A DNA stretch of 63,249 nucleotides, the filler included, from Deltaproteobacteria bacterium (lineage in GTDB: Bacteria > JACQOV01): the NCBI GenBank assembly GCA_016202395.1. It is 3 parts of 3 records of this genome, joined end to end, with 100 filler letters (N's around TTAATTAATTAA, not from the genome) between each part and the next. Parts side by side here need not be neighbours in the genome. Positions count along the whole stretch, not along the records: positions 1 to 19,693 come from JACQOV010000056.1; 2 more parts are not named here. The stretch is one strand, 5' to 3'. The first letter of the stretch is position 1, and each line of letters begins with the position of its first letter. Below, piece by piece: positions 170 to 56,089 of this stretch. The translations under genes were made by a program, and so were the position numbers. A model generated the notes under the pieces. The model saw nothing but the letters and a program-made list of their open reading frames with translations. It did no database searches and had not been told where the DNA came from.

Positions 170-1540
170 ATGGCGTCTCCGAAGGACAAATCGAGTCTCT
201 TGATTGCGGATGAAGATCCTGTGAGTCGCCGACGCATTCGTGAGGCTCTCAAGCATCAGGGATTTGTTGTAAAGGAGGCTTCCTCTTTAACAGGGGCTCT
301 CGGGAAATGTCGGGCCGATTCTTTTGACATCATTATCACAGAGCTTTGGCTTCACTCCGAGAAAACCGCGCCGGCTGTGAGAGCTTTTAAGATGTTGCAA
401 CCCAACGCAAAGGTGATTGTCCTCACGGGGGTTTCTTCTGTGGAGAACGCTGTGGACGCCTTTCGGAATGGAGCCAGCGATTACGTTGTAAAACCGGTTA
501 TCCCGGAACAAATTATTGCTAGCTTGCACAATGTTCATTTGGAGAGGATCATGGAAACGGGAAAGCAGAAAATCCCGGTCCAACTCATGGATGTTCCTCG
601 TTCTGTTTTGAATCGCGATGCAACCCAATTGCCCAAGAAGATTTTAGGGATTTTTCTGGAGTTCCTCCATTCACACATGGGATGTGTTACCGTCGATCCT
701 GAAGGAAAAAGATGGGTTCGGCAGGGCGTTTCAGAATCCTATCGTCGGCGGTGGTTCGCTTATCTAGAAAATCGTGTCAAACAGCCGTTAGATGAGGTGT
801 CCGATTTAATAGCCTTGCGGTCTTGTCGCTTAGATCCCAAAGGGAAGAGATGGCATCTGCTCTATGTCCCTCTTCTGGTAGAGCGGATCTCTCAGGGGGG
901 ATGTTTGATGTTGCGCGACGGAAATCAGCGGTTTTTTTCAAAAAAAGAGCAAGGACAGGTCCGATTTATTGCAAGTCATATCGCAATTTCATGGCCTAAG
1001 CCCACAGAATATACCGATTTTTTAAGCCTGGCCTATTTTGATCCGCTGACTGGATTGCTCAACACGCGATTCCTGGATCTAGCCTTGGAAAAAGAGATGA
1101 CTCACTCGAAGCGTCAGCACAGCCATTTTTCCATACTGTTTATCGATCTGGATCTTTTTAAAGAGGTGACCGACGGCTATGGCCATCTTATGGGAGGAAA
1201 GGTTCTTCGAGAGTTTGCGGAGGTGTTGCAAAAGGCGGTTCGGGACCAAGATCTGGTCTTTCGATTTGGAGGAGATGAATACGTGGTGCTTCTAACTCAG
1301 GCGACACATTCGATAGCTTTGAAAATCGCAGAGCGAATTCGGAGCGCCATTGAAAGGCATCGTTTTCTTTCGAGAGAGGGGATCAATGTCTCGCTCACAG
1401 CCTCTACGGGGGTCGCTTCCTACCCCGACCATGCGGCCAAGCGAAGAGATCTTTTGCACGTCGCGGATCAAGCCATGTATTTAGCTAAGAAGTTTAGCAG
1501 AAATTCTGTTGTTTCTGCTGATAAAGTGGAGGAATCTTGA
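170..1540 (+). CDS. REC-(GAF-like)-GGDEF dinucleotide cyclase, Hypr/GacA-like
   Basis: N-terminal receiver fold (LLIADED, IVLTG, YVVKP); C-terminal DPLTGL, FIDLD, RFGGDEY, ADQAMY; RxxD I-site (RDQD) before GGDEY. Confidence 0.9.
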   Translation: MASPKDKSSLLIADEDPVSRRRIREALKHQGFVVKEASSLTGALGKCRADSFDIIITELWLHSEKTAPAVRAFKMLQPNAKVIVLTGVSSVENAVDAFRNGASDYVVKPVIPEQIIASLHNVHLERIMETGKQKIPVQLMDVPRSVLNRDATQLPKKILGIFLEFLHSHMGCVTVDPEGKRWVRQGVSESYRRRWFAYLENRVKQPLDEVSDLIALRSCRLDPKGKRWHLLYVPLLVERISQGGCLMLRDGNQRFFSKKEQGQVRFIASHIAISWPKPTEYTDFLSLAYFDPLTGLLNTRFLDLALEKEMTHSKRQHSHFSILFIDLDLFKEVTDGYGHLMGGKVLREFAEVLQKAVRDQDLVFRFGGDEYVVLLTQATHSIALKIAERIRSAIERHRFLSREGINVSLTASTGVASYPDHAAKRRDLLHVADQAMYLAKKFSRNSVVSADKVEES

Positions 1541-1613: not shown

Positions 1614-1850
1614 GTGCAAAAAAAACTGACCCTTAGGCTCGATAGTTACTTGATAGGACTCGCAAAGGCTCGTTCAGAGCGGATGGGGAGATCTCTCTCT
1701 CAAATGGTAGCGGGTTATTTTGCCCTTCTTTCACAAAAGACTTCATCTACGAGTTTGACCCCGCTGGTTCGGTCGCTCAAGGGATCTCTTCGAGGAGCGA
1801 GGGTGGATGAGGAGGATTACCGCCGACACCTTAGGAAAAAGTACCGATGA
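1614..1850 (+). CDS. RHH-type antitoxin (DUF6364-like)
   Basis: 78 aa, KLTLRLD...SLSQMV; ATGA overlap with the PIN toxin gene. Confidence 0.8.
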   Translation: MQKKLTLRLDSYLIGLAKARSERMGRSLSQMVAGYFALLSQKTSSTSLTPLVRSLKGSLRGARVDEEDYRRHLRKKYR

Positions 1851-2275
1851 AGGTGCTTTTTGATACCAATGTCGTCCTGGATGTCCTGCTCGATAGGAGG
1901 CCTTTTTCAGCCCCAGCGGCAAGTCTCTTTGCAAAAGTGGAGACAGGAGAAATCGAGGGGAGTATTTGCGCAACAACGGTAACAACGATCCACTATATCG
2001 CAGCAAAGGCTGTTGGGACCCAGCAAGCGAGGGTTGAGGTTAAAAAAATAATGGCCCTTTTTGAGATTGCTCCTGTGAATCGCACCGTGCTCGAAACAGC
2101 CATTACAGCTAAATTTCTTGACTTTGAAGATTCTGTTATTCATGAAGCGGCAAGGCATATCGGAGCCCAAGCGATTGTGACCCGCAACCCAAAGGATTTT
2201 AAAGGGGCGGTATTGGCGATTTACACTCCACAGGAATTAGAGGCTATATTCAATCGCCACTTAACAGACCGCTAG
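1847..2275 (+). CDS. PIN-domain (VapC-like) toxin
   Basis: VLFDTNVVLD, DFEDSV, IVTRNPKDF motifs. Confidence 0.9.
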   Translation: MKVLFDTNVVLDVLLDRRPFSAPAASLFAKVETGEIEGSICATTVTTIHYIAAKAVGTQQARVEVKKIMALFEIAPVNRTVLETAITAKFLDFEDSVIHEAARHIGAQAIVTRNPKDFKGAVLAIYTPQELEAIFNRHLTDR

Positions 2276-2325: not shown

Positions 2326-3582
2326 ATGAAAATATCAAGGATACGGGGATTCCGTGATGTTGTGTCACCGGAATCAGACCAATACGAGAAGATCCTTCGA
2401 ACCGCGGAATCGATTCTGAAGCCGGCTGGTTTTGAAAGGGTTTTCTTGCCGATTTTGGAGCCGACCGAGCTTTTCTCAAGAACGATTGGGGAGACCACCG
2501 ATATTGTCGAAAAGGAGATGTACACTCTCATGGATCGAAACGAAGAGTCGCTCACTTTGCGCCCGGAAGGGACGGCCGGAGCGGTGAGAGCCTATATCGA
2601 GCATTCCGAGAAAAATCAGGATCCAACCTGGAAGATCTTCTATTACGGACCGATGTTTCGACATGAGCGTCCTCAAAAGGGGCGGCAGCGGCAATTTTAT
2701 CAATTAGGGGTGGAGATTTTTGGGTGGTCTTCCCCTTGGGTCGACGCAGAACTTCTCTCTCTTTTGCAGGAGCTCTGGAGTCGTTTGGGCTTAAAAGATA
2801 TCCAGCTTCGGTTGAACTCTTTGGGATGCTCAAAGTGTCGGACCGACTATCGCAAGAGATTAATGAATTATCTGTTGCCACTCCAAAACAGGCTTTGCGC
2901 TGATTGTCAGAGACGAATTGAGCGGAACCCGCTCCGTGTTTTTGATTGTAAACAAGAGGGATGTCGTAGTGTTGTTCACGCAGCTCCTAAAACATTGGAT
3001 TCTCTTTGCGAGGATTGCAAGGGCCATCGATCTCGGTTGCTCGAGGGATTAAAAACTTTGCAGGTGTCTTATGAAGAGGATCCATCGCTTGTTCGTGGAT
3101 TGGATTATTACACCCGAACTGCTTTTGAATACACGAGCGATTCGCTTGGCGCCCAAAACGCCATTGCTGCGGGTGGACGTTATGATGACCTCGTTTCACA
3201 ATTGGGGGGGAGGCCCACTCCGGCGATTGGGGTGGCTGCGGGATTGGAGCGGCTCTCATTGCTCCTTCAACCGGATAAGAAAGAGGGGCTTAAACTTTTT
3301 GTGGCTGCTTTAGGAGAGAGGGCGGCTCAGGAGGTTGTCTCTCTGATTCGGAACCTTCGGAATGTCGGGATTTCAGTGGAATGGGATTCGGAAGGAAAGA
3401 GTCTCAAAAGCCAGATGCGCCGCGCCGATCGTTTGCAAGCCCATTACGTCTTAATTTTAGGGGATCAAGAACTCCAAAAGAGGGAGGGGATCCTGCGGGA
3501 TCTTCAAGCTCAAACCCAGGAATCGATTCCCTGGGAGCAGAGTTTAAAAATTCTTATTGACAAGTTGGGTTCAAAACGTTAG
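2326..3582 (+). CDS. hisS: histidine--tRNA ligase
   Basis: LRPEGTA, FRHERPQKGRQRQFYQ, LVRGLDYYT, GGRYD. Confidence 0.98.
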   Translation: MKISRIRGFRDVVSPESDQYEKILRTAESILKPAGFERVFLPILEPTELFSRTIGETTDIVEKEMYTLMDRNEESLTLRPEGTAGAVRAYIEHSEKNQDPTWKIFYYGPMFRHERPQKGRQRQFYQLGVEIFGWSSPWVDAELLSLLQELWSRLGLKDIQLRLNSLGCSKCRTDYRKRLMNYLLPLQNRLCADCQRRIERNPLRVFDCKQEGCRSVVHAAPKTLDSLCEDCKGHRSRLLEGLKTLQVSYEEDPSLVRGLDYYTRTAFEYTSDSLGAQNAIAAGGRYDDLVSQLGGRPTPAIGVAAGLERLSLLLQPDKKEGLKLFVAALGERAAQEVVSLIRNLRNVGISVEWDSEGKSLKSQMRRADRLQAHYVLILGDQELQKREGILRDLQAQTQESIPWEQSLKILIDKLGSKR

Positions 3583-3585: not shown

Positions 3586-3598
3586 CAGGAAAATCGAT

Positions 3599-3629
3599 CC
3601 TTTAAGCTGATCCGGTGAGATCAGCAAGG
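3599..3629 (+). promoter_or_regulatory. PyrR-binding RNA stem-loop (anti-antiterminator)
   Basis: cctttaa-gctgatc-cggtga-gatcagc-aagg resembles the PyrR binding loop (CUUUAA...UCCNGNGAG...AAGG); lies in the pyrR leader. Confidence 0.75.
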
Positions 3630-3666
3630 AGAAGCAGTGGAAGCAAGAAAAAAGAGATTTACAGGT

Positions 3667-3706
3667 AAACCCCTCAGCGATAGGTTCGCTGCAGGGGTTT
3701 TTTGTT
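3667..3706 (+). terminator. intrinsic attenuator terminator in pyr leader
   Basis: aaacccct-cagcga-taggt-tcgctg-c-aggggttt followed by a T-tract. Confidence 0.8.
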
Positions 3707-3707
3707 A

Positions 3708-3753
3708 TGGGGACATTTTTAAGTGGGGTTTTTGGGTGGAAAAAGTGTCCCCA
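3708..3753. repeat. palindromic element, GGGGACA/TGTCCCC family
   Basis: tggggacattttt...aaaaagtgtcccca; same termini as the carA insert. Confidence 0.65.
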
Positions 3754-3766
3754 CGTGGGTGAATTC

Positions 3767-4312
3767 ATGCAAACTGAACGCAAAATTCTAGACGCCGAAG
3801 CCATGGATCGAGCCCTCAGCCGAATGGCTCATGAGATCCTTGAGAGGAATCAGGGGGCAAAAAACGTCGTTCTCGTGGGTATCCGAACAGGAGGGGTCTT
3901 TATTGCGCAGAGGCTTGGCGCAAAAATTCGTGAGTTCGAGAGAATAGAGGTGCCAATCGGGATCATGGATATCACCCTTTACCGCGACGACATCGCTCTA
4001 AGAAACAAAACGCCTCAGGTTCGAGCGACAGAGATCCCATTTTCACTCGATGATAAAAATGTCGTGCTAGTCGACGATGTTCTTTTCACCGGTCGAAGCA
4101 TTCGAGCCGCCATGGATGCGATCGTTGATTTCGGTCGGCCTCAGACTTTGCAGCTCGCTGTTTTGATCGATCGCGGACATCGAGAGCTGCCCATTCGGCC
4201 CGATTACGTTGGGAAGAATATCCCCACCTCGCGACATGAGAATGTGGAGGTTTCGTTAAAAGAGAGTGGGAAAGAGGATCAAGTTTTGATTAGGGAGGGA
4301 TCCGTTGAATAA
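3767..4312 (+). CDS. pyrR: pyr operon attenuation protein / uracil phosphoribosyltransferase
   Basis: [35 protein letters not shown]; start set at ATG 3767. Confidence 0.96.
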
Positions 4313-13104: not shown

Positions 13105-13323
13105 ATGAAAGTGAATCCAAACCTGATATGGGACTATAGTTTTTCATCGCAAGAGATGGAGGCCGAATCCTTCAAACGATGGTATGTAGCACGAGTGCTG
13201 ATGCGAGGAGGGAAAGAAGACATTCGCGCGGTGGGTTTAGAGACGATTCGGCGGCTACTTCCTGACATTTCCATCCCACAACGCATTCGGGAGTTTTGGA
13301 ATTGGTATTTTCAGAAATCTTAA
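13105..13323 (+). CDS. small protein paired with AbiEii-like gene (DUF6922-like, putative antitoxin)
   Basis: LIWDY...RVLMRG...FW pattern; overlaps next gene; TATACT at 13090-13095 just upstream. Confidence 0.7.
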   Translation: MKVNPNLIWDYSFSSQEMEAESFKRWYVARVLMRGGKEDIRAVGLETIRRLLPDISIPQRIREFWNWYFQKS

Positions 13324-13958
13324 CACCACTACAAAAGAGACTGCTCGAGATTTTTACCGAGTACCCTATCTTTAAGGATTTCTATTTCACGGGTGGGACG
13401 GCCCTTTCTGCTATTTATCTTCAACACCGTTTTTCAGAGGACCTAGATTTTTTTACGGAAGTTCCTCAAGGTGTCGCTCGGATTATTCCCATCATCGAAG
13501 AGATCGCTAAAAAGGTGGGGCTCCAAATAGTGATGGGTCGTCGATTCGAAACCCTTTTCGAATGCACCCTTGCTAAAGGTTCAGAAGAGAAGGTGGAATT
13601 CGATTTTGCGCTCGATCTACCGGGACGATTGCAGCCGGTTCGATTAGAGCCTTCTCTGAGACTTTATGTGGATAACGAATTGGATATTGCTTGCAATAAG
13701 TTATCGGCCCTCTATGATCGCGCTGAACCCAAGGATTTTGTGGATCTCTATTTTTTAGTCCAAGAAAAGATGTCTTTTGAAACTTTGCTAGCTAACGCTC
13801 GAAAGAAATTTCCGGGTATAGACGATTACGGTCTCTCTTTGACTTTCTTCAAAGTCAAAGGAGTCGAAAAACTTCCTCGCATGATCAAACCTTTAAAGAT
13901 CCAGACCTTGAAAGAATATTTCCTCGACAAAGCCGCTCAGATGAGCAACCAGATTTAG
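13296..13958 (+). CDS. AbiEii/AbiGii-family nucleotidyltransferase toxin
   Basis: GGTAL, HRFSEDLDFF, K...R..KDFVDLY. Confidence 0.9.
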   Translation: MELVFSEILTPLQKRLLEIFTEYPIFKDFYFTGGTALSAIYLQHRFSEDLDFFTEVPQGVARIIPIIEEIAKKVGLQIVMGRRFETLFECTLAKGSEEKVEFDFALDLPGRLQPVRLEPSLRLYVDNELDIACNKLSALYDRAEPKDFVDLYFLVQEKMSFETLLANARKKFPGIDDYGLSLTFFKVKGVEKLPRMIKPLKIQTLKEYFLDKAAQMSNQI

Positions 13959-34266: not shown

Positions 34267-34860
34267 ATGGAGAAAAAACTGAAACCACTGGATGTGCTAG
34301 ACAGGCTGCAACAAAGGCAAGTTCGCATCTTTTCACCTGAAGAATTTCGCCGCATCTTTTCAGTTTCTTTAAGGGCAACTCAGGAGTTTATTAAGGACCA
34401 CCAAAAAGATCTCTTCGTGAAGCTTCGCAATGGTCTTTACACGCTTCGAATGAACTTCCCTAATGAATTCGAAATTGCAAATCGACTCTACCAACCCTCC
34501 TACGTTTCTTTTGAATATGCTTTGGCACACCATCACATGATCCCAGAGGTGGTATACACTATCACATCAGCCACCACAAGAATCACTCGGTCCTTTGTGG
34601 CGCGGGGCATGCTTTTTGAGTATTCCAAAATTAAGTCCATGGCCTATCGAGGGTACAGTTGCGAAGGAAAAGACGGGGCTACCATCCTTGTTGCGGGGCC
34701 AGAGAAAGCCTTGGTGGATTATCTCTATTTCGTCGATCTAAAATTAAAGGCTTGGAATGATAGGCTGGCTCTTCGAAAAATAAATAAAAAATTAGTGCTT
34801 CAATATGCTTCTTACTTTGAGAGGGAAAGTCTTAATAAACGAATTAAGGATCTGTTATGA
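34267..34860 (+). CDS. type IV TA antitoxin, AbiEi-like
   Basis: LRNGLY, PSYVSFEYAL..H.MIPE, PEKALVDYLY. Confidence 0.87.
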   Translation: MEKKLKPLDVLDRLQQRQVRIFSPEEFRRIFSVSLRATQEFIKDHQKDLFVKLRNGLYTLRMNFPNEFEIANRLYQPSYVSFEYALAHHHMIPEVVYTITSATTRITRSFVARGMLFEYSKIKSMAYRGYSCEGKDGATILVAGPEKALVDYLYFVDLKLKAWNDRLALRKINKKLVLQYASYFERESLNKRIKDLL

Positions 34861-35600
34861 TCGAAATAAAACAATTTCAACGGCTTGCAGATCACCGGAT
34901 GACGACTGTGGAAAACGTCGTACGCGAGTTTTTCCAAAATCTCTTTTTATCTTATTTATATCAGCAAAAAAACTCTGAAAAACTTCTCTTTAAAGGAGGG
35001 ACCGCTTTACGGCTGATCTGGCAATCCCCTCGTTTCTCAGAAGATCTCGATTTTACGGGATATAAAATTTCCACATCCCAAATTGAATCTATTATAGAAT
35101 CAACCTTGGATAAAATTGAAAGGGAAGCTTTTCAGGTGGATATAGAGGAGTCCAAAAAAACTACAGGTGGCCACCTCGGAATTTTTCATTTTGCAGGGAA
35201 TGGTTACAAAAGCGCTCTTCAAATTGAGATTTCGCTGCGTGAAAAACGGGTTTGCGGAGTAATGACCTCCATTGTTCAGCCTGAGCTGCTCCCCCCTTAC
35301 ACCATTGTCCATTTGGATGAAAAGATCGTCGTTCATGAAAAGATCCTCGCATGCCTTACCCGTGGCAAGCCGAGGGATTTTTTTGACCTCTATTTTATAC
35401 TCAGGAGCCGAATGGCATTTAAAGAAGTCTTCCGTGAAGACAAAACCCTCCAATCGAAACTTTTGGCGAAGGTCTCAAAAGAACGCTTAGATCTGCGAAG
35501 TGAGCTAAAACAATTTCTGCCCGCGAGTCATCGTTTGCTTTTGAAAGACTTTAAATCCTCATTGTTAAGAGAAATAGAGAGAAGCTTCCCAGAAAGATAA
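34857..35600 (+). CDS. type IV TA toxin, AbiEii-like nucleotidyltransferase
   Basis: FKGGTAL, RFSEDLDF, EK...R.KPRDFFDL. Confidence 0.9.
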   Translation: MIEIKQFQRLADHRMTTVENVVREFFQNLFLSYLYQQKNSEKLLFKGGTALRLIWQSPRFSEDLDFTGYKISTSQIESIIESTLDKIEREAFQVDIEESKKTTGGHLGIFHFAGNGYKSALQIEISLREKRVCGVMTSIVQPELLPPYTIVHLDEKIVVHEKILACLTRGKPRDFFDLYFILRSRMAFKEVFREDKTLQSKLLAKVSKERLDLRSELKQFLPASHRLLLKDFKSSLLREIERSFPER

Positions 35601-38529: not shown

Positions 38530-38667
38530 AACCGTTCGCAAACGTGGAGATCCCTTAACGGAGAGGTGTAAAGTTTTATGCACAAAGCTCCAGGGTCTTG
38601 TTCTTAAAAGAAAAACCTCACAAAACGGTCATAAAAAGCCACTCTAAAGTGTAAATAAAGTTGGCAA
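38485..38667 (+). repeat. 183-bp direct repeat, copy 1 (glpK 3' end plus downstream DNA)
   Basis: aligns without gaps to 44554-44736; 5 mismatches by manual count. Confidence 0.95.
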
Positions 38668-38755
38668 TCCTGAAACGATTGCCTCACTCAAACCTTCTTG
38701 AATTTCGTCAACAATTTAAGATACTTATGCCTTTCCAACCCCCAAGAAAAAATCT

Positions 38756-38771
38756 TGGCATAAAATTTGCA
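38756..38771 (+). promoter_or_regulatory. sigma54 (-24/-12) promoter
   Basis: TGGCATAAAATTTGCA = GG-N10-GC, about 55 bp upstream of ATG 38826. Confidence 0.7.
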
Positions 38772-38825
38772 TGTACTTTGCAGTTGAACATCATTATATG
38801 GATCCAGACAATAAGGGAGGAGCCC

Positions 38826-41819
38826 ATGAGTAAAAAGTTCAAGGTCATATTTATACTTTTGATAACCGCTGGGATACAGGGACTGTACGGTTTCGAAGGG
38901 TTAAAACCGATCCCTTCGGACATTGAGATCATTCCATTACAAAGAGCTGTCCCAACCCCTTACAACTGGATTCGGAATGGTTCCTTTGAAAGCGCCTCTC
39001 TGGACCCCATCAATCTTACTCCGGACGGATGGGAGGTCTCTGAAGGCTTGGTTTCTCAAACGCAAGAAGACAACAAGGATGGGATCTTCTCAGTCTATGC
39101 ACCCGGTTTCTTCTCCCTATCTCAAGTCGTTGAAAATTTTAATGTGCTAAAAGGTGAAAAAGTTGCATTGGGTGCCTGGGTGAAATCCACTGAAGCAGGC
39201 CGAGTGAAGGTCAGCCTAGAAGATGGCGTATCCGATCCTGAGAAGGCTTCCATCTGGAATAGTGGATTAGACGAGTGGGAGTTCGTGACTGTTAAAATAG
39301 TCGTCGATCCTGAAGCCACACAGTTAATCGTAAGAATTGAAAATGATCCTCCTTCATCCGAGGGAGCCTACATCGATGGGGTCGTACTCTATCAACTGAC
39401 GAAAGACATTGCGTTCACGCCAAATCCATCCGACGATATCAAGATGCCGTCGAATTTAATCTACACAAATTTGACAACTCCATCGGTTGGGATCGGCAAA
39501 ATTCCCGAGGTGGGGATTTTAGATGTTGCCGGGGATGTGCATACCCAAGGGAAGGTTTACTCCCAAGGAACTGAGCTTCTGAATCAAACAAGTGCCGATG
39601 AGTTGTATGTTAACGTGACGGGTGACACCTTGGATGGGAATCTCACCGTGGGCGGAACCATTTCGGCTCAATCGGTTGTTTCCAGTGGAATTATAACATC
39701 GGGTGATGCCGAGGTTTTAACGACTTCCGGAGGGATCATTCGGGGAGATCTTGGTATCAATGGCAGCTTATTTTTTACAACGGATCCAGTAACGGGACAA
39801 CCCATTCCCTACCTCACTCAAACCGAAGCTGATCAAAATTACGTCAGCCTCAATGGTGACGACGTCATTAATGGTGACATTTACATTACAGGCAATGTTG
39901 GGATCGGCACAACAGCACCAACGGGAAACCTCCATCTGGCCAATGAAGCTGCGGGGGATCTCCTTATCCTCGAAAGAACCGACACAAACTATCCAGCCAA
40001 GTGGAAATTGGCTGTCTCTGCTAGTGCACAAGGAGATTTCGCGATCCTGGATGCAATGAATGACAACGTCAGACGATTTCTTATCGACAACCAAGGCCAT
40101 GTTGGTATTGGAACCAGCTACCCCGTTGATAAGCTCCACATCGTAAAGGATGAGGGACCTTCTGCCCCCTATGGGCTCGTTATTGAAAACCATGGGGCAG
40201 ATCCTGGTATCCAGTTTCGTCCTACCCAAGACCTGGCTACTGTCTACATGACAGGAACTGCCGAAGGGCAATTCTCCCTCGAAGCTACAGATAATATCAA
40301 CCTCCGAACCAATAACGCGAATCGCCTAAAAATCGATAGCTTAGGCTATGTTGGAATTGGAACGGAAAATCCAGCAACGATTCTGGATGTCTCTGGCCCG
40401 CTGAGATTTGGGGCCTATACCAAAGCCACTTTGCCACCTGCTGGGGTCCCAGGCCGTTTAGCTCGAGTCACAGACGAGGTGCGTGGCTTATGGATCGACC
40501 AAGGGGACAAATGGCATCCTCTCATGGGATCGGTGTATCCTCAGTGGTTTGGTGCCGTAGGAGATGGAGAACATGACGATACCTCTGCTATCAAAAGCGC
40601 ATTGAATGCAAGTCAATCGGTTGAGCTCCCTTGTGGAACCTACATAATTTCAGAACCCCTTACGATCCGCTCAGATCAGCAAATTCAAGGGAATGGACCT
40701 TGCAGCAGAATTAAAGCGGATGGTATCAGTTTATTCAAGGGTGGCCTACTGACGATATGGGGTGAAAATAAAGAAAATAAAAGTAGAATAAGCATTAAAA
40801 ACCTGGCACTTGATGGGAACAGGTCTAAATATGAGGACAGTGGTATTGATGCTGAAATAAATGGGATCCATCTTGGAGGTGCAGATCATGTCATCATTGA
40901 CACAGTGTGGATTGAAGATATACCTAGCGTAGCGGCTTATGGAAATGATAGTTCCTTTGGGGATGGGATCACTATCTCTGGAAAAGATAATGAGTATGCC
41001 ATTTATCATGTAACTATCAACGATGTCATCATCCGAGGGTTTAGCCGTAACGGCATCTCTCTCACCAACCCAAGTGGGGTGGCCATTTCTAACTTCGTGA
41101 TTGATAACAATGGCTACTCGGCTGATCCTGGGGTCGGCATTGACATTGAACCGGATGGGGAAGCTAGTGTTAAGGAAATTGCGATTTCCAATGGAACGAT
41201 TACCTACACTGAATATGGAATTGGCCTAATAGCAAAAGAAACTCCCGGCGATGGAAAACCCGAACCTCGCAATATCTCTCTGAGTAATATATCGGTCTTT
41301 GAAACAAACCACGCAGCTTTCAATATCCATGGGCTAGGCATATCGCTCAGCAACTGTACAACTATAAATACCAACAAAGTGGGAAATACTACAGGCGCTA
41401 TTCATATCACTGCAATCACAGGAGGAAGTGCTCCTCTTGTTCGCTCCGAGACCATCACTATAACAGGATGTTCTATCCGAAACTCGTATGGTCACGGGAT
41501 CAGCCTTGACGGCGTTGAAAACGTGACTTTGAGTGGCAACACAATCGATGGAAGTGCCAGTAGCGGAGTCAAGATACTATTTGATAAAAATTTTTCCAAT
41601 GAAAACATAACAATCAGTGGAAATACCATCACCCATAATAATGAAAGTGGGGTCGGGATTGAGCCGGATTCTGCAGAGAGTGTGTTGAAACATCTCACAG
41701 TTGTAGGAAATACAATAGTAAATGATCCAAATCAAGGAAAGGCGATCGTCGACAACGCCACATTCTCAGACAAGACGACATGGATATTTTCATCAAATAA
41801 TCTTTACCCATATCCATAG
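38826..41819 (+). CDS. secreted fibre/tailspike-like protein with C-terminal right-handed beta-helix
   Basis: SD GGAGG, signal-like N-terminus, CBM-like NGSFE domain, repeated GxVGIGT, FGAVGDGEHDDTSAI (pectate_lyase_3-type), repeated SGNTI beta-helix coils. Confidence 0.8.
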   Translation: MSKKFKVIFILLITAGIQGLYGFEGLKPIPSDIEIIPLQRAVPTPYNWIRNGSFESASLDPINLTPDGWEVSEGLVSQTQEDNKDGIFSVYAPGFFSLSQVVENFNVLKGEKVALGAWVKSTEAGRVKVSLEDGVSDPEKASIWNSGLDEWEFVTVKIVVDPEATQLIVRIENDPPSSEGAYIDGVVLYQLTKDIAFTPNPSDDIKMPSNLIYTNLTTPSVGIGKIPEVGILDVAGDVHTQGKVYSQGTELLNQTSADELYVNVTGDTLDGNLTVGGTISAQSVVSSGIITSGDAEVLTTSGGIIRGDLGINGSLFFTTDPVTGQPIPYLTQTEADQNYVSLNGDDVINGDIYITGNVGIGTTAPTGNLHLANEAAGDLLILERTDTNYPAKWKLAVSASAQGDFAILDAMNDNVRRFLIDNQGHVGIGTSYPVDKLHIVKDEGPSAPYGLVIENHGADPGIQFRPTQDLATVYMTGTAEGQFSLEATDNINLRTNNANRLKIDSLGYVGIGTENPATILDVSGPLRFGAYTKATLPPAGVPGRLARVTDEVRGLWIDQGDKWHPLMGSVYPQWFGAVGDGEHDDTSAIKSALNASQSVELPCGTYIISEPLTIRSDQQIQGNGPCSRIKADGISLFKGGLLTIWGENKENKSRISIKNLALDGNRSKYEDSGIDAEINGIHLGGADHVIIDTVWIEDIPSVAAYGNDSSFGDGITISGKDNEYAIYHVTINDVIIRGFSRNGISLTNPSGVAISNFVIDNNGYSADPGVGIDIEPDGEASVKEIAISNGTITYTEYGIGLIAKETPGDGKPEPRNISLSNISVFETNHAAFNIHGLGISLSNCTTINTNKVGNTTGAIHITAITGGSAPLVRSETITITGCSIRNSYGHGISLDGVENVTLSGNTIDGSASSGVKILFDKNFSNENITISGNTITHNNESGVGIEPDSAESVLKHLTVVGNTIVNDPNQGKAIVDNATFSDKTTWIFSSNNLYPYP

Positions 41820-49144: not shown

Positions 49145-49354
49145 TTAAAAGGCTCCCTTCGAGATGATGACGCGGATCACTGTGACGATGTAGCACACCA
49201 TGCCTAGAAGGATCATTGGGATGCCGATGACAAAAAACAGGGTCATGGTAATCCGGTGGAAAAGGGCCGCGCTGATGATTCCTAATAACAATCCCGTGAT
49301 TTCTAAGGCGCAGCCGATCCACAGCCAACGCATCATTTTAGGGTCATTCATCAT
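49145..49354 (-). CDS. small two-TM membrane protein, copy 2
   Basis: 69 aa hydrophobic; near-identical to 50021-50227; overlaps NapC-like stop. Confidence 0.75.
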   Translation of the reverse strand: MMNDPKMMRWLWIGCALEITGLLLGIISAALFHRITMTLFFVIGIPMILLGMVCYIVTVIRVIISKGAF

Positions 49355-49952
49355 CGGAGTATACCTCGTGAATTACATCATGACATCCCTTGTCCATGCA
49401 GCTTTGTTTATTAGTTTTTAAACGGACCCTCATCTTCGGATCTTGTTGGTGGTACTCCGTTTCCTCAAATTTTTTCGCCCCTTCGTGGCAGCGCAGGCAT
49501 TCTCGATTATTATAAGGCTGGTAGATTTCGATCTTTTTGGGCGCTCCTTTAAAATAATGCACATTCATATGCAAGAGCCCTTGGATCTTTGCTTTGATCG
49601 GGCCGTACAGGGTGTAATCGGTGTGGCACTCATAGCAGGCCTTCTCTTTGTGAACCCAATTGTTTTGGTAATGGATGGTGGGGATCCTCTCGTCGTCATC
49701 TTCTTCAAGGCTTTCTCCATAGGCTTCCATTTCATGGCACGAAAGGCAGAATGAGACCTCTTTAGAATTTTCCATATTGATATGAACGGCTGCAGAGAGG
49801 ACAAGAGCGGGAAGGGCAAGGGCGCCGAGCAAGAGAAGAACTTTTCCTAGGCGCTGCATAAACCACTCGCGTTGGGCAAGGAGGACCGCGAGAAGGACAA
49901 TGTTTAGCGCCATGAGGCCAACGATGACATAGGGCCCTGCGGCAAACGTCAA
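49344..49952 (-). CDS. NapC/NirT-family tetraheme cytochrome c, copy 2
   Basis: two N-terminal TMs, FCLSCHEM, CYECH, CLRCH, CMDKGCH. Confidence 0.88.
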   Translation of the reverse strand: MTFAAGPYVIVGLMALNIVLLAVLLAQREWFMQRLGKVLLLLGALALPALVLSAAVHINMENSKEVSFCLSCHEMEAYGESLEEDDDERIPTIHYQNNWVHKEKACYECHTDYTLYGPIKAKIQGLLHMNVHYFKGAPKKIEIYQPYNNRECLRCHEGAKKFEETEYHQQDPKMRVRLKTNKQSCMDKGCHDVIHEVYSDDE

Positions 49953-50020: not shown

Positions 50021-50227
50021 TTAAAAAGCGCCCTTCGAGATGATGATGCGGATCACTGTGACGATGTAGCACACCATGCCTAGAAAGATGGTTGGGATGC
50101 CGACAACAAAAAACAGGGTCATGGTGACCCGATGGAAAAGGGCCGCGCTGACGATTCCTAATAACAACCCCGTTATTTCTAAGGCGCAGGCGACCCACAG
50201 CCAACGTATTTTGGGGTCATTCATCAT
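50021..50227 (-). CDS. small two-TM membrane protein, copy 1
   Basis: MMNDPKIRWLW...IISKGAF; paralog of 49145-49354. Confidence 0.75.
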   Translation of the reverse strand: MMNDPKIRWLWVACALEITGLLLGIVSAALFHRVTMTLFFVVGIPTIFLGMVCYIVTVIRIIISKGAF

Positions 50228-50867
50228 TGGAGTACACCTCGTCAGTTCCCTCATCGGAGTACTCTTCGTCAGGGTACACCTCATGGGTCACATCATGGCA
50301 TCCCTTGTCCATGCAACTTTGTTTGTTGATTTTTAGCCGCAGCAGCATCTTAGGATCCTGTTGATGTTGGGGGAGATTCTCAAATCTCTTAGCCCCCTCA
50401 TGACAGCGGAGACACTCCCGATTGTTATAAGGTTTGTAGAGCGCGATATCCTTGGGGGCCCCTTTGATATAGTGAACGTATATGTGCATTAATCCGCGAA
50501 CCTTCGCTTTGATGGGCCCAAACACCGTGTAGTCGGTATGACATTGGTAACAAGCCTCCTTCTGCTCAACCCAATTGTTCTGGTAATGGATGGTGGGAAT
50601 CATCTCATCATCGTCTTCATGGAGGCTATCGACATAAGGCCCCATTTCGTGGCAGCCCAGACAGAAGGAAACGCTTTCAGAGTTTTTAATGTTCAGCGCG
50701 AACGTTGCTGCCACCACAAGGGTGGGGAAAACGATGACCACCAAAAAGAACAGGACCTTTCCCATTCTTTGCAGGATCCACTCGCGTTGAACGAGGAGAA
50801 CCGTCAGAAGAACAATGTTCAACATGGTAATGCCGACAACGATGTAAGGTCCTGCTGAGCTAAGCAT
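50217..50867 (-). CDS. NapC/NirT-family tetraheme cytochrome c, copy 1
   Basis: FCLGCHEM, CYQCH, CLRCH, CMDKGCH; acidic repeated tail. Confidence 0.88.
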   Translation of the reverse strand: MLSSAGPYIVVGITMLNIVLLTVLLVQREWILQRMGKVLFFLVVIVFPTLVVAATFALNIKNSESVSFCLGCHEMGPYVDSLHEDDDEMIPTIHYQNNWVEQKEACYQCHTDYTVFGPIKAKVRGLMHIYVHYIKGAPKDIALYKPYNNRECLRCHEGAKRFENLPQHQQDPKMLLRLKINKQSCMDKGCHDVTHEVYPDEEYSDEGTDEVYSNDE

Positions 50868-51790: not shown

Positions 51791-53038
51791 TTAAAACATC
51801 GTCCTAAAGTTCAACAAGAAGTCATGTGCCGGTTCTGTATGGCCTGTCTTTTCCCCCAAAACATCAAAACCCGCGTAGAAGGTGAGTCTCATATTCTCGC
51901 GGATCTGATAGGTGAGACTCGGGGTAATCTTATGAAGTTCCGCTCCGTTGAAGTTGTCGATTGGGACGGTTCGATCCCATGCAATTCCAGGAACCCAGGG
52001 ATACTTTACATAGGCTCCAAGGAGCGTCCAGCCGTAGAACTTGCCTTCAACAGGGGTTGCGGCCAGCGTGACATTGTCATCTTTGCCATAGACATAGCCC
52101 CCTTGAATATCGACGTTTTCACCATAACGCACATTCAACGACGGAAAAAGCCGCCAGTAGTCGTTCCGTTTTTGAGCGGTGTCTGTGTTTTTGGTATCCG
52201 TTCCCCAAGCATAGTGGAGAGTGACGCTGCTCCCTTCAAATGCGCTTTCCATGGCTTCGGTCACCTCAAGGCGCGCCCCTGTCCAATAGTTGAGGAAGTT
52301 ATTTTTTTCAGCGCCACTGGATCCGGGTGAAATGCCTGCGTACCAAACGACCGGCCCTTTTTCACCATAGTAGGTGATCCCAGGGCGGGCCGAGGTGACA
52401 TCCACGCTGTCTTCGCCAGTTCCATTAGAGGCTTTGAGCCGCAGCGCTTCATTCTTTAGAGCGGGAAACAGAGGGAGTCTATTAGGAAATGAAGCGAACA
52501 ATACGGGGCTCACGTTTCCAACTTGGAAATTGACATAATCTCCCACTAGGTTATGAAATCCAAGATAGAACCAGTTGAATTTGAATGCATCCTTTGAGAA
52601 TTCATTCTCGATAAAGATCGAGACATTCTTGAAGATGCTTCCCGCGACAAAAAATTGGAGCCAGTCCGGGTTTCCGATCGTGAGTTTGGTTTCTTTGCTA
52701 TCATTGCTTTCAATATCAAGACTGTTCGTTTGAATCCGAAGTGGCGTCACATTGAGACGGGCCCCCAGCCAATTTTCAACTTTCCCAAGAGTGAGCCGTC
52801 CTTCTCCACCCAATGCCTTCATCCCAACGGTGTCTCCATCCCCTTCGGGATCATCCGGGCTTTGATAGCCATTGCGCAAAAATCTTTCACCGTAATAATT
52901 CAGCCGGGGAAAGATGTTATGGCAGGTGGAACAAGGCTCTCCATATTTTCTGGAGAACTGAGAGACGGCGCTCGCCTCTCGTGGCCAGAAAATAAAGAGG
53001 CCCATCGCTATAAGAGTTAAAGATAAGACATATTTCAT
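51791..53038 (-). CDS. Cyc2/ExtI-like fused monoheme cytochrome-porin
   Basis: signal peptide ending ASA; FSRKYGEPCSTCHNIFPRLNYYGERFLRNGY; beta-strand-rich body; C-terminal Phe. Confidence 0.8.
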   Translation of the reverse strand: MKYVLSLTLIAMGLFIFWPREASAVSQFSRKYGEPCSTCHNIFPRLNYYGERFLRNGYQSPDDPEGDGDTVGMKALGGEGRLTLGKVENWLGARLNVTPLRIQTNSLDIESNDSKETKLTIGNPDWLQFFVAGSIFKNVSIFIENEFSKDAFKFNWFYLGFHNLVGDYVNFQVGNVSPVLFASFPNRLPLFPALKNEALRLKASNGTGEDSVDVTSARPGITYYGEKGPVVWYAGISPGSSGAEKNNFLNYWTGARLEVTEAMESAFEGSSVTLHYAWGTDTKNTDTAQKRNDYWRLFPSLNVRYGENVDIQGGYVYGKDDNVTLAATPVEGKFYGWTLLGAYVKYPWVPGIAWDRTVPIDNFNGAELHKITPSLTYQIRENMRLTFYAGFDVLGEKTGHTEPAHDFLLNFRTMF

Positions 53039-53108
53039 GGGGATCCTCCTTCTTTTGGGGTTGAATTCAATCATGGCCTAAACTTAGCATTCTACTCTTT
53101 TAAACGGG

Positions 53109-53124
53109 TATGACCTGCGTCATG
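53109..53124. promoter_or_regulatory. Crp/Fnr-type box upstream of cytochrome-porin operon
   Basis: TATGAC-CTGC-GTCATG. Confidence 0.7.
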
Positions 53125-53217
53125 ACTTCATATGTTTCTAAACATCCGCAGAGACAACTCTAAATCAGCTGTTTTTTGAAGTCAATAAAGGCCCAGGAGT
53201 AAATGGGGTAGAAAGAA

Positions 53218-53307
53218 TATGGCGCCCCTGGCCCGATGTAGGCCATGGTTTTTTTCGGGGGGATTTGAGCGAAGGAGGCTCCGCTCACCCAAACCAGGGG
53301 CGCCATA
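53218..53307 (-). ncRNA. candidate structured RNA or palindromic element (unassigned)
   Basis: 14-bp perfect closing stem tatggcgcccctgg/ccaggggcgccata with internal hairpins. Confidence 0.4.
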
Positions 53308-53371
53308 AACATTGCCAGTTCGCCCAAAGTAATCGATTCTTGCCAAGGTAATCGATTCTTGAAAGAGTGGG

Positions 53372-53409
53372 TATGATAGGCATCAATCTATCCTATGATT
53401 TATATCATA
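53372..53409. promoter_or_regulatory. tandem Crp/Fnr-type boxes
   Basis: TATGAT-AGGC-ATCAAT (53372-53387) and TATGAT-TTAT-ATCATA (53394-53409). Confidence 0.7.
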
Positions 53410-53779
53410 GGGTTCCCACACCGGAGGGGAAAAAGTGAAAGATCGCGGACTTTGGGATAAAGAGAACCTCGACCTCTGTTTGTGCAGTGCAGGTGGCGCA
53501 ATAAGGGGTTGTGGAGAGGAGGTGGTTGAGTCCGATCAAAAGGAGTTGGTCTGGATCGGTTCCCACAGAGAGGGTCTCAGGAGCGCTATTGGATAAGGTC
53601 ACTTTCCCTTTCTTAAGCTGGAAGAAACCGTAGGGTATATGATTTTTGTAGAAAAGGATTTGTCCTTCTTTGAAGTGGAGGGTTTCTCCGCGAGATTCTA
53701 ATTCGCGCAGACGATGAACCACTTCACCGTAAGTTGTTCCGTCGATTAAGCTCTTTTTACAACAAATATCGGATGGCAT
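53405..53779 (-). CDS. stand-alone cNMP-binding (Crp effector-like) domain protein
   Basis: FKEGQILFY, GFFQLKKGKV, YCATCTAQTEVEVLFIPK; no HTH. Confidence 0.75.
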   Translation of the reverse strand: MPSDICCKKSLIDGTTYGEVVHRLRELESRGETLHFKEGQILFYKNHIPYGFFQLKKGKVTLSNSAPETLSVGTDPDQLLLIGLNHLLSTTPYCATCTAQTEVEVLFIPKSAIFHFFPSGVGTL

Positions 53780-53780
53780 G

Positions 53781-54890
53781 TTAGGCGGCTCCTCTTAAAG
53801 TTTTGGGTTGATAAACACAAAGGGGCTCTTCTCCCAGGAAATCGCCCGTGGCATAGTAAGCTCGCGCTCGACATCCCAAGCAGACCTTCTTGAACTCGCA
53901 TTCACCACATTTCCCTTCCAAAAGATCGACATCGCGAAATCGGTTGAAAAGAGGAGAATGGTTCCAGATCTCTGAAAAGGCCTGGGTTTTAACATTCCCC
54001 GCGCTTAGCGGAAGATAACCACAGGGAAAAACCTCTCCAGTGTGCGACACAAAACAGATCGATGTGGCTGCGAGGCAGCCTCTCGTGAGCGTATTCATCT
54101 GATGTTTATCCCCCTCACCCGACCTTCGGTCTCCCTCTCCCCTTTGGGGTGAGGGGGGAACGTTTCGCAATCGATTCTGTTGTCGGATCACGCGAAAATA
54201 ATGCGGGGCGCAGGTCGCTTTCAGATGGAGCCGATTATCGAGAGAGCGCTCATAGAGCCAAACTAAAATCTCTTCGTACTCTTCAGCAGAGATTTGATGA
54301 GACTCCGCGATTTCCAATCCGCAACCGACCGGGACTAGCAAAAAGAAGTGCAACGCGTCAGCCCCTAGTTCTACCGCCATGCGATAGATATCGGGGACCT
54401 CTTTTGCATTGTGTCGTGTGACGGTAGAGTTGATTTGAAGGCTCATTCCCAGGGCTTTGAGGCGGGTGAAACCTTGGAGGGCCGCTTCAAAGGATCCTGC
54501 TTGTTGGCGGAACGAGTCGTGGGTTTCCGCGGAGGCTCCATCGAGACTAATGGCAACACGGCGTATCCCAGAATCGACGATAGTTTTCGCTGTTTCTCCA
54601 TCGATCCTCGTGCCGTTGGTGGCCAGCGCCACCGGGAGTTCCAGCTTTTGAGCCTCTCTCGTGATATCAAAAATATCCGGTCTCATTAAGGGCTCCCCTC
54701 CGCTCAGGACAAGGATCGGTTGGCCTACTTCTCGAATCTGTTGGAGAAGGGATCGGCATTCCTCAAAGTCGAGGTCATTTTTCATCAGGTTCCGGCTCAC
54801 ATCGAGTCGCCGACAATGGATGCACTCGAGATTGCAACCTGCCGTGGTTTCCCAGAAGAGGAGCCTGAGATCCGGTTGGATGGCATTCAT
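53781..54890 (-). CDS. ahbD: radical SAM/SPASM heme b synthase (AhbD/NirJ2-like)
   Basis: FWETTAGCNLECIHCR, KATCAPHYFR, GCLAA, CGEC..KKVCLGCRARA. Confidence 0.88.
   Translation of the reverse strand: MNAIQPDLRLLFWETTAGCNLECIHCRRLDVSRNLMKNDLDFEECRSLLQQIREVGQPILVLSGGEPLMRPDIFDITREAQKLELPVALATNGTRIDGETAKTIVDSGIRRVAISLDGASAETHDSFRQQAGSFEAALQGFTRLKALGMSLQINSTVTRHNAKEVPDIYRMAVELGADALHFFLLVPVGCGLEIAESHQISAEEYEEILVWLYERSLDNRLHLKATCAPHYFRVIRQQNRLRNVPPSPQRGEGDRRSGEGDKHQMNTLTRGCLAATSICFVSHTGEVFPCGYLPLSAGNVKTQAFSEIWNHSPLFNRFRDVDLLEGKCGECEFKKVCLGCRARAYYATGDFLGEEPLCVYQPKTLRGAA
54110..54158. repeat. palindromic element in frame inside ahbD (CTCTCCCC/GGGGAGAG family)
   Basis: ccccctcaccc-gaccttcggtc-tccctctcccc-ttt-ggggtgaggg; encodes PPSPQRGEGDRRSGEG. 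Confidence 0.85.
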
Positions 54891-56089
54891 TGGAGTCCAA
54901 TCTCCTTATCGGTGAGGTAACAACTCGGATCAGGGGCCCAAGGATCTCCGTGCGCTCTTTCGGCACGGACCCGCATTGCCCCTCCGCAAAGATTCAAGAA
55001 ACGACAGGAGCTACATCGCCCCTTGAGCCACCGTTTTCGATCTCGGAGCTTGCCCAAAAGGGGTTCGGATTCGTCTTGCCAGATCTCGCTAAAAGGGCGT
55101 TCTCTAACGTTCCCTAAGGTGTAATCCATCCAAAACTGATCGGGGTGAACATTGCCAACGAAATCGACACAAGCGATGCCAGTGCCGGAACTGTGGAGCC
55201 CTCCACCGTTCCAAGTCAGCATCTGGTGAACCTCCTCAGATCGTGGATCCTTTTCCTCCAGCATTTTGAGGTAAAGATAGGGGCCATCACAGTGATTATC
55301 CACCGTGAGGATCTCAGTATCGAGTCCCCTTTGATAGAAGCCGCGCGTTCGTTCCAGGATCGTGTCCACCGCTCCTCGCGCCTCTTCCGGAGTGAGATCC
55401 ACCAGGCCGTGCCCTCGTCCCGAGGGGACCAGATGATAAAAACAGGCCCTCCGGATCCCTTCTTTTTCGATGAAGTCGAAGATCTGATTCAGATCATGAG
55501 CGTTTTGGCGCGTGAGGGTCATCCGAAGTCCTACCTTTTGCCCCCGTTCCACCAGAAAACGCATCCCCTGGACCGCGCGATGGAAGGCCCCCTCCATTCC
55601 TCGGAAACGATCATTCGTCTCTCCCACTCCATCGAGGCTGATCCCTACGTAAGAGAGTCGGGATTCAACGATATGATCTGCCATTTTTTCATCAATGAGG
55701 GTCCCGTTGGTCGAGATCACCGTGTGAGTTCCCATGGAGCGGGCCTCATAGGCTAAGGCAAAGAGGTCCTTGCGCAGCAGAGGTTCCCCTCCAGAAAACA
55801 GCAGGGTTGGGATCTGGTATTTACCGAGGTCTAGGATCATCTTCCATGCCTCTTGTGAGTCCAATTCCCCTGGGTATTTCTTGGCCTCGGAGTCGGAGTA
55901 GCAATGGACACATCGGAGGTTACAGGTTCGGGTGCAGTTCCAGACAACGACTGGGCGACGTTCCTTGGCCGATTTGGCGAGTTTATGAGCCTGCTCCGGG
56001 GCAGGGGAGAGGTTTTTTAACGCCTTTCCATAGCGATGGGGCTGCGAAGCGGTCTCTTTGCCACAAAATAGGGCGGAAACATCGATCAT
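54887..56089 (-). CDS. ahbC: radical SAM/SPASM Fe-coproporphyrin III synthase (AhbC/NirJ1-like)
   Basis: RPVVVWNCTRTCNLRCVHCY, CFYHLV, LTVDNHCDG, HPDQFW, DPSCYL. Confidence 0.9.
   Translation of the reverse strand: MIDVSALFCGKETASQPHRYGKALKNLSPAPEQAHKLAKSAKERRPVVVWNCTRTCNLRCVHCYSDSEAKKYPGELDSQEAWKMILDLGKYQIPTLLFSGGEPLLRKDLFALAYEARSMGTHTVISTNGTLIDEKMADHIVESRLSYVGISLDGVGETNDRFRGMEGAFHRAVQGMRFLVERGQKVGLRMTLTRQNAHDLNQIFDFIEKEGIRRACFYHLVPSGRGHGLVDLTPEEARGAVDTILERTRGFYQRGLDTEILTVDNHCDGPYLYLKMLEEKDPRSEEVHQMLTWNGGGLHSSGTGIACVDFVGNVHPDQFWMDYTLGNVRERPFSEIWQDESEPLLGKLRDRKRWLKGRCSSCRFLNLCGGAMRVRAERAHGDPWAPDPSCYLTDKEIGLQ

Follow-up and report, generated by a model that had tools for sequence, protein, structure and literature searches.

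A GGDEF-domain protein of 456 residues, P0001, is encoded by the first gene (positions 170 to 1540, plus strand) of the 63,249-nucleotide stretch from the deltaproteobacterial assembly GCA_016202395.1 that was analyzed here (hereinafter the window, which begins 169 bases 5' of this gene). Sequence comparisons indicate that P0001 is a relative of GacA by descent, architecture and gene position, in which the two residues that read the nucleobase are replaced by Thr334 and Gly343 (hereinafter T/G), while the catalytic, metal-binding and phosphate-binding residues are kept. We tentatively favor, as quite possible though short of probable, the interpretation that P0001 is an active cyclase of the GacA lineage with a relaxed or adenine-shifted choice of purine, regulated not by phosphorylation but through the GAF-like domain and through cyclic dinucleotides bound at the I-site. 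The pair is found throughout a small clade of homologs, and the gene is under purifying selection.

The reading frame of P0001 is open throughout, its start site is shared with the homologs P0270 and P0002, and its host is an uncultured groundwater bacterium. The protein displays a REC/GAF-like/GGDEF layout. The N-terminal receiver (residues 11-119; positions 200 to 526, plus strand) is recovered by the Pfam profile PF00072 (Response_reg) with E 1.4e-18, and has an atypical acceptor loop. The C-terminal catalytic domain (residues 288-445; positions 1031 to 1504, plus strand) matches the GGDEF family profile PF00990 over practically its whole length (E 1.4e-43; 148.9 bits, with a cut-off of 23.8; positions 1-160 of the 161-position profile). 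An AlphaFold2 model of P0001, built with 31 aligned relatives, has a mean pLDDT (predicted local distance difference test) of 81.3, with 88-97 in the GGDEF domain. The middle domain (approximately residues 140-278; positions 587 to 1003, plus strand) is modeled as helices around a 5-6-stranded sheet with pLDDT 74-90. Pfam returned no match for this domain in P0001 itself, and a Foldseek search with the whole model found PleD, DgcR, WspR and GGDEF domains but did not identify the middle domain. We term it GAF-like because the corresponding regions of relatives match Pfam GAF profiles, namely GAF_2 in seven and GAF_3 in four of the 31 aligned sequences.

A HMMER comparison of P0001 with 177,635 distinct PDB sequences ranked first 6d9m (E 2.8e-43, 151.5 bits), a T4-lysozyme fusion of the Hypr GGDEF domain of Geobacter metallireducens GacA (GmGacA), followed by DosC (3.6e-35) and PleD (about 3e-27). 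The ungapped alignment to 6d9m places Thr334 (codon ACC, positions 1169 to 1171, plus strand) against an Asn and Gly343 (codon GGA, 1196 to 1198, plus strand) against the Ser of FKGVNDTHGHLVGS, the local sequence of P0001 being FKEVTDGYGHLMGG and also FSILFIDLDLFKEVTDGYGHLMGGKVL...RDQDLVFRFGGDEY. The former position is that of PleD N335 and GmGacA N339, the sugar-face reader of the base, and the latter that of PleD D344 and GmGacA S348, the Watson-Crick-face reader. As described in the GacA structural study (PMC6456294), the hydrogen bonds of Ser348 on the Watson-Crick face and of Asn339 on the sugar face are the sole two specific base contacts in the GacA structure. Each of the replacements in P0001, Asn to Thr and Ser to Gly, is reachable by one base change. 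A third residue of the binding site, at the cross-dimer position occupied by Y304 in GmGacA and R300 in PleD, is Thr299 (codon ACG, positions 1064 to 1066, plus strand), as seen on aligning LTGLLNTRFLD of P0001 to LTGLFNYRYLD of 6d9m; it is Thr in all four members of the T/G clade, and Thr is common here in relatives with Ser at the Watson-Crick-face position (hereinafter Ser-type). The same study ties a cross-dimer Arg to c-di-GMP (cyclic di-GMP), and reports mainly cGAMP (cyclic GMP-AMP) with Tyr, Ser, Ala or Gln in its place (PMC6456294). P0001 thus has Thr, Gly and Thr where the canonical PleD-type signature has Asn335, Asp344 and Arg300.

The rest of the active site is preserved. The metal-binding Asp region D326-L327-D328 (FIDLD; positions 1145 to 1153, plus strand) is invariant in both alignments of relatives and in all four clade members. 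The I-site RxxD motif, R358-D361 (1241 to 1252, plus strand), lies five residues N-terminal of the catalytic motif and is invariant in the second of these alignments. In translation, the catalytic motif itself reads GGDEY (residues 367-371; positions 1268 to 1282, plus strand), as in one further clade member, the other two having GGDEF. Residues D326, D328, K331, D335, H339, R358, D361, R365, K440 and R444 are identical in all four members, in which R389 and R391 of the AERIR motif are likewise kept. R389 (positions 1334 to 1336, plus strand) is an Arg in 4/4 clade members and 27/27 relatives; a manual count along the 6d9m alignment, rather than tool output, makes it the counterpart of R393 of Geobacter sulfurreducens GacA (GsGacA), the second Arg of the I-site. 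The PleD counterparts of the residues kept in P0001 are assigned to metal and phosphate binding in a review (PMC7288161). Across residues 286-450 the only clade-wide departures from conserved positions are Y301F, N334T and K425R, of which Y301F and K425R are conservative.

These comparisons bear out much of what an earlier note on this DNA had read from the sequence. The stretch it quoted, FIDLDLFKEVTDGYGHLMGGKVL ... RDQDLVFRFGGDEY, is exact in translation; its placement of T334 and G343 at the PleD N335/D344 positions agrees with both the codons and the 6d9m alignment, and the metal Asp, GGDEY and RxxD it had called intact are so, with the addition that the phosphate-binding Lys and Arg residues are kept in all four members. 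Its description of the two changes as N to T and D to G holds for the first, whereas at position 343 the change within this protein's own lineage is Ser to Gly. Likewise, the designation as a Hypr/GacA-like enzyme stands as a statement of lineage, given the best structural match and trees that set P0001 apart from 33 canonical sequences, but not as one of class. The Hypr-defining feature is a Ser or Thr at the PleD D344/GmGacA S348 position (PMC6456294; PMC8835794). P0001 has Gly there, and Thr at the GmGacA N339 position; hence it is a Hypr relative and not a member by the published definition. Hypr enzymes of the Ser type need GGDE[F/Y] and never have GGEEF (PMC6456294); the P0001 clade has GGDE[F/Y], and T299 provides the non-Arg cross-dimer residue.

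The T/G clade comprises four protein records (P0001, P0002, P0003 and P0270) at 58-91% identity, and all four carry the pair. In a word-indexed search of 5.8 billion clusters, P0002 (75% identical) and P0003 (58-59%) were recovered, everything else being at most 34% identical over the full length; P0270, which is 91% identical to P0001 and comes from a separate source, was found by cluster look-up. An exhaustive HMMER search of 1.84 billion representatives yielded no more T/G members, its best non-self full-length matches being 31-38% identical, and a search with residues 316-372 returned the T/G clade, one Ser-type protein and nothing else. Against genome contigs P0001 matched 26 loci, the best at 43% identity and in the GGDEF part only, and against metagenome contigs 30 loci, the best at 36-40%.

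The pair is thus not private to this assembly, which the earlier note had named as a point to survey. A 343-base Logan contig from a second study, covering positions 1045-1387, shows 13 differences from the window with both base-reader codons unchanged. Over all listed differences, the codons that differ from the window gene are 16 synonymous to 3 non-synonymous in that study and 5 to 1 in a third. The runs that hold stretches of the gene carry groundwater or freshwater metagenome labels, and the best-matching among them are possibly the source of the window DNA itself; no RNA dataset is listed among the holders of the gene. Close strains of the gene, 90-99% alike, occur in the groundwater or freshwater runs of these two studies, and the strain in one of them has H312R and I382M in common with P0270. 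With four independent protein records, a contig from a second study on which both codons are unchanged, the excess of synonymous changes and a full open frame, the notion that T/G is an assembly or sequencing error, or that the gene is a decaying pseudogene, is refuted as far as sequence data show; nothing was found in its favor, and we regard it as extremely improbable.

To place the pair among other GGDEF domains we tabulated the residues at the two positions in the best GGDEF domain of 280 proteins, namely all hits fetched and six translated loci, a set that is biased towards relatives of P0001. The canonical Asn/Asp (N/D) occurred in 137 and Asn/Ser (N/S) in 118; the remainder were N/G (8), N/N (6), N/T (5), T/G (4), N/R (1) and V/R (1). 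The eight N/G proteins fall into five clusters (P0124; P0133; P0149/P0271/P0272; P0218/P0273; P0142) and have intact GGDE[F/Y] and RxxD motifs. In the domain alignment, Asn is found at position 334 in all 97 rows outside the T/G clade that are either Hypr-clade (64/64) or canonical (33/33). Asn to Thr therefore appears from the sequences to be the exceptional change of the P0001 clade, Ser to Gly recurring in other lineages. A back-translated scan for FKxxTDxxGHxxGG across 185,579 species, each represented by one genome, produced 20 hits, none of which (0/20) lies in a GGDEF domain; by our own estimate about 17 would be expected by chance, and variants such as FRxxTD escape the motif. The shorter FKxxTDxxGHxxG, scanned in 401 genomes from the phylum to which a Geobacteraceae genome belongs, was hit once, by a sequence that carries an in-frame stop. 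As a byproduct of these scans we noted a non-GGDEF sequence, FKLNTD(G/S)(E/F)GHS(E/V)GG, at six Solirubrobacterales loci (L218, L222, L224, L226, L232 and L235), three copies being in one genome. A literature search, outside which paper supplements and Hallberg et al. 2016 lay, returned no work on variants that have Gly or Thr at these two sites. The N/G variants of the Ser-type REC/GAF/GGDEF enzymes, with all catalytic motifs intact, apparently are themselves unstudied.

For phylogenetic placement, only rows with at least 140 aligned positions were retained (276 of 280) and three trait columns were removed. The resulting domain tree has 109 GGDEF rows: the rare classes are represented in full (25 rows), N/S by 51 of 116 rows and N/D by 33 of 135, Bd0367 not being among them. 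A quick IQ-TREE run (LG+C20) recovered a 74-row clade (SH-aLRT, the approximate likelihood-ratio support, 91) that holds all the N/S, N/G, N/T and T/G rows and 0/33 N/D rows; the T/G rows form a single clade within it with support 99. When T/G is constrained to lie outside the other 70 rows, the log-likelihood improves by 9.97 units over that of the free quick tree (p-AU, from the approximately unbiased test, 0.619); in the constrained tree T/G is sister to the 68 other distinct rows, with a shared stem of 0.275 and no N/D row inside. Since the test fails to reject the outside position, the T/G clade lies either inside the Hypr crown or as its sister. The full-length tree (LG+G4), drawn from 46 of 96 receiver-bearing relatives, places the clade on a long stem of 1.06, with no sister group singled out in this or in the domain tree, and its starred branches require at least two origins of N/G. 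Neither tree identifies the N/G proteins as the closest relatives of the T/G clade. Eight N/G proteins in the same clade, with motifs intact and with at least two origins, suggest that Gly at the Ser position is naturally tolerated.

Homology extends over the whole protein, as all the end-to-end relatives of P0001 are Ser-type REC/GAF-like/GGDEF proteins (E about 1e-60). Gene position agrees: the GGDEF gene lies 5' of hisS (positions 2326 to 3582) on the same strand, as gacA-like genes do, the difference being a toxin-antitoxin pair that intervenes here. The hisS product is 47% identical to those of the hisS genes directly 3' of gacA-like genes at three loci, L029, L238 and L241. In L029, a Desulfuromonadales metagenome-assembled genome, a Ser-type gacA-like gene ends 120 bases 5' of hisS, which is followed by aspS; in Geoalkalibacter (L238) and Geobacteraceae (L241) the best match to P0001 is a Ser-type gene with a same-strand hisS beside it. 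These results bear on three points of the earlier note. The closeness of gacA to hisS is borne out at all three Desulfuromonadales gacA-like loci examined. The GacA segments it had named, RFLDLAL and AERIR..IE.H.FL..EG, align to 6d9m as NYRYLDISL and AERIRRSIEGHTFLAAEG. The tree it had proposed as a check leaves P0001 inside or sister to the non-Asp clade, with both trees keeping it apart from the 33 N/D rows. No hisS was seen within the 6-kb flanks of two myxobacterial loci, nor within the 1.5-kb flanks of the best matches in Nitrospirae, Thermodesulfovibrionales and Manganitrophaceae genomes (three loci).

Comparison at matched overall divergence points to a GGDEF domain that is constrained as strongly in the T/G clade as in Ser-type enzymes. 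T/G pairs with about 60% overall identity have domains that are 68.5-69.7% identical, versus 69.7-70.9% for Ser-type pairs, and at about 76% overall identity the values are 84.8% versus 83-84.2%. P0001 and P0003 have 58-59% of their residues in common overall and 79% in the core region 320-372. The middle domain is somewhat more conserved in T/G pairs than in Ser-type pairs, whereas the receiver is less so (54-56% versus 66-73% at about 60% overall identity).

The receiver has a distinctive acceptor site. The position of the phospho-acceptor Asp, aligned to that of DgcR (6zxm), is occupied by Glu58 (codon GAG, positions 341 to 343, plus strand), and Glu is found there in all four T/G members, while 25 of the 27 other aligned relatives have Asp and two have Glu. 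Four residues further, position 62 is His or Ser in the T/G clade and Pro in 25/27 relatives; D14, E15, T86 and K108 are kept in P0001. The receiver architecture proposed by the earlier note is confirmed by Pfam, although the Glu that replaces the acceptor Asp throughout the clade, and with it the phosphorylatable site, had been overlooked. Published mutants have a bearing on this. GacA D52A is fully active in vivo, and R393A raises cGAMP 30-fold (PMC6456294); WspR D70E is used as an active cyclase (PMC8835794). Hence, loss of the acceptor Asp need not mean loss of function. The I-site of a further Hypr enzyme, GacB, binds c-di-GMP (bioRxiv 10.1101/600031).

On the interpretation we favor, P0001 would be still under selection as an enzyme. 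It retains all the parts needed for binding the phosphates of a Mg-nucleoside triphosphate (NTP) and for attack by the 3'-OH. Of the side chains that hydrogen-bond the base, the sugar-face one is shortened from Asn to Thr and the Watson-Crick-face one from Ser to Gly, and the cross-dimer stacking residue is Thr and not Arg. The protein would probably still dimerize and join two purine NTPs. The remaining guanine-directed reading would be lost, and stacking together with the cellular NTP pools would set the product mix, which might be cGAMP and c-di-AMP (cyclic di-AMP) rather than c-di-GMP, or another purine dinucleotide. By analogy with GacA and GacB, E58 may mimic the phosphorylated state, with no control by Asp phosphorylation, and regulation could lie with the GAF-like domain and with an I-site (R358, D361 and R389) that binds cyclic dinucleotides. 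The retention of the catalytic, Mg-binding and phosphate-binding parts, with only the base readers shortened, fits a changed choice of base better than decay.

Several considerations weigh against this interpretation. The activity of P0001 and its Gly-type relatives is predicted from sequence. The combination of Ser with GGEEF is inactive, as the Watson-Crick-face residue is too far from the Mg (PMC6456294), and Gly343 widens that gap further. PleD Asn335 and Asp344 are described as essential or important for activity (PMC7288161; bioRxiv 10.1101/2025.08.22.671821), and Asn335 touches the alpha-phosphate (bioRxiv 10.1101/2025.08.22.671821). The strong conservation of the GGDEF domain would equally fit a binding role. 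Finally, no cGAMP or c-di-GMP riboswitch and no PilZ, EAL or HD-GYP gene is present within the 63-kb window.

The published distance model and the importance of PleD Asn335 weigh against activity, and because of them we give real, if clearly lesser, credence to a rather unlikely alternative, that P0001 binds substrate poorly and serves as a cyclic-dinucleotide receptor or scaffold, binding its ligand at the I-site and using the fold for dimerization and partner binding, with the receiver permanently 'on' or inert. The Goldilocks model (PMC6456294) predicts that NTPs bind weakly if the contact on the Watson-Crick face is too distant to form; this agrees with the reported importance of PleD N335 and D344, with an Asn that is otherwise invariant in 97/97 rows, and with the retention of all of R358, D361 and R389; in addition, the receiver lacks its acceptor Asp and is less conserved in T/G pairs than in Ser-type pairs. 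What such a receptor leaves unexplained is the retention of every catalytic, metal and phosphate residue in 4/4 members down to 58% identity, and the confinement of change to the two base readers, where a decaying active site should be less selective; moreover, Gly variants with intact motifs arose at least two more times. Degenerate GGDEF receptors of the PopA/PelD type offer a comparison, and P0001 shares the retained I-site with this class but has an intact motif and intact metal and phosphate residues. Domains with degenerate motifs are described as typically inactive and serving for binding (PMC8835794), and the motif of P0001 is not degenerate.

It is also conceivable, but unlikely, that P0001 is an ordinary GacA-type cGAMP synthase, in which Thr bonds the N3 edge of the purine and a water or backbone amide stands in for the Ser hydroxyl. 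Its placement, architecture, hisS synteny, GGDEY, non-Arg cross-dimer residue and I-site are all as in GacA, its domain constraint equals that of Ser-type enzymes, and both changes are single-base ones that would leave the site small and polar or neutral. Yet the Ser is called critical for accepting both GTP and ATP (PMC8835794), and its change to Asp switches the product in GacA (PMC6456294) and in Bd0367 (PMC9140294); this position therefore steers the product. An Asn that is invariant in 97/97 relatives is also unlikely to be replaceable without effect. More doubtful still is the idea that the enlarged pocket admits a nucleotide excluded by ordinary GGDEF enzymes (a modified or larger purine NTP, for instance, or one in another base orientation) and that the product is a cyclic dinucleotide new to GGDEF enzymes, with a phospho-mimic receiver and cross-inhibition by c-di-GMP. 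In that case the Gly-type relatives would represent the first step on the same path.

Downstream of the GGDEF gene the order is a DUF6364/PIN_3 pair, hisS, pyrR, pyrB, pyrC, carA and carB. The pair (positions 1614 to 2275, plus strand), in which stop and start overlap, encodes proteins of 78 and 142 residues (PF19891, E 9.3e-18; PF13470, E 1.9e-24) and looks like an inserted toxin-antitoxin module, the gacA-like gene and hisS adjoining one another in the Desulfuromonadales relatives. The best matches to the CarB of the window, at 65-68% identity, are spread over Geobacteraceae, Nitrospirae, Thermodesulfovibrionales, Manganitrophaceae and Dadabacteria. An Rfam search of the 63-kb window gave no match at gathering scores and four weak ones at E<=1, none of them GEMM. 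One sub-threshold match is to RF00515, the PyrR binding site RNA (positions 3595-3706; 42.2 bits against a gathering score of 54, E 0.02); it lies directly 5' of pyrR (3707-4312), upstream of pyrB/pyrC/carA/carB, and is plausibly a real attenuator.

Other genes in the window deserve brief mention. Three encode AbiEii-type nucleotidyltransferase toxins (13296-13958, 34857-35600 and 56954-57811), at least one of them being preceded by an open reading frame (ORF) that no Pfam profile matches (34267-34860). A 427-residue ORF, also without a Pfam match, adjoins two neighboring radical SAM/SPASM genes, with a divergent gene for a Crp-family regulator (51791-56089, minus strand, and 56238-56945); together they may constitute a peptide-maturation cluster. 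A 1052-residue protein (38661-41819) combines a carbohydrate-binding module with pectate-lyase-like beta-helix domains. Two adjoining genes for NapC/NirT-type multihaem cytochromes (49344-49952 and 50217-50867, minus strand) deserve notice, since extracellular electron transfer in Geobacter is under the control of GacA.

Among known systems the closest is GacA itself (GSU1658 of Geobacter sulfurreducens; Gmet_1914, PDB 5VS9/6D9M), the founding Hypr GMP-AMP cyclase and the best solved relative, with which P0001 has in common a similar size, the REC...GGDEF layout, GGDE[F/Y], a non-Arg cross-dimer residue, and the RxxD and AERIR Arg of the I-site. It further resembles the Desulfuromonadales gacA-like genes in its position 5' of hisS, and the acceptor Asp is dispensable in GacA (D52A). 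It differs in Gly for Ser348, Thr for Asn339, a Glu acceptor and the toxin-antitoxin pair before hisS, and it is only about 30% identical to Ser-type relatives over the full length. MxGacA (MXAN_4463) and other myxobacterial Rec-GGDEF Hypr enzymes are full-length homologs, such as those of Myxococcus vastator (L027; 31% identity over residues 1-450) and Anaeromyxobacter (L030); they have Thr at the cross-dimer position as in P0001, but an N/S pair, an Asp acceptor and no hisS within 6 kb. The MxGacA receiver is an orphan (bioRxiv 10.1101/600031). Bd0367 of Bdellovibrio bacteriovorus, of the Hypr GGDEF class, retains the Ser that P0001 has lost; its I-site binds c-di-GMP and cGAMP, and its S214D variant makes almost only c-di-GMP (PMC9140294). 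The Gly-type relatives share clade, architecture, Gly and intact GGDE[F/Y] and RxxD with P0001, but keep the Asn and the acceptor Asp. The canonical REC-GGDEF diguanylate cyclases PleD and WspR share the fold, catalytic residues and I-site, but have N335, D344 and the cross-dimer R300, none of which is found in P0001, and P0001 clusters apart from the 33 N/D rows; WspR D70E provides a precedent for a Glu acceptor in an active cyclase.

Among cyclic-dinucleotide synthases the GGDEF enzymes are the most abundant, and to our knowledge the Asp-to-Ser swap is the only natural route by which they have reached a new product, cGAMP. With the catalytic residues kept and both base readers removed, the T/G clade constitutes an experiment of nature on how substrates are recognized according to the published 'Goldilocks' model. 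If these proteins are active, the model would have to include another means of gripping the base, and GGDEF enzymes may form a broader set of products than is assumed. If they are inactive, they would represent a cyclase turned receptor with a perfect-looking motif, a caution that GGDEF and I-site motifs by themselves are no proof of activity. With Gly-type relatives that have arisen repeatedly, the question extends beyond the T/G clade.

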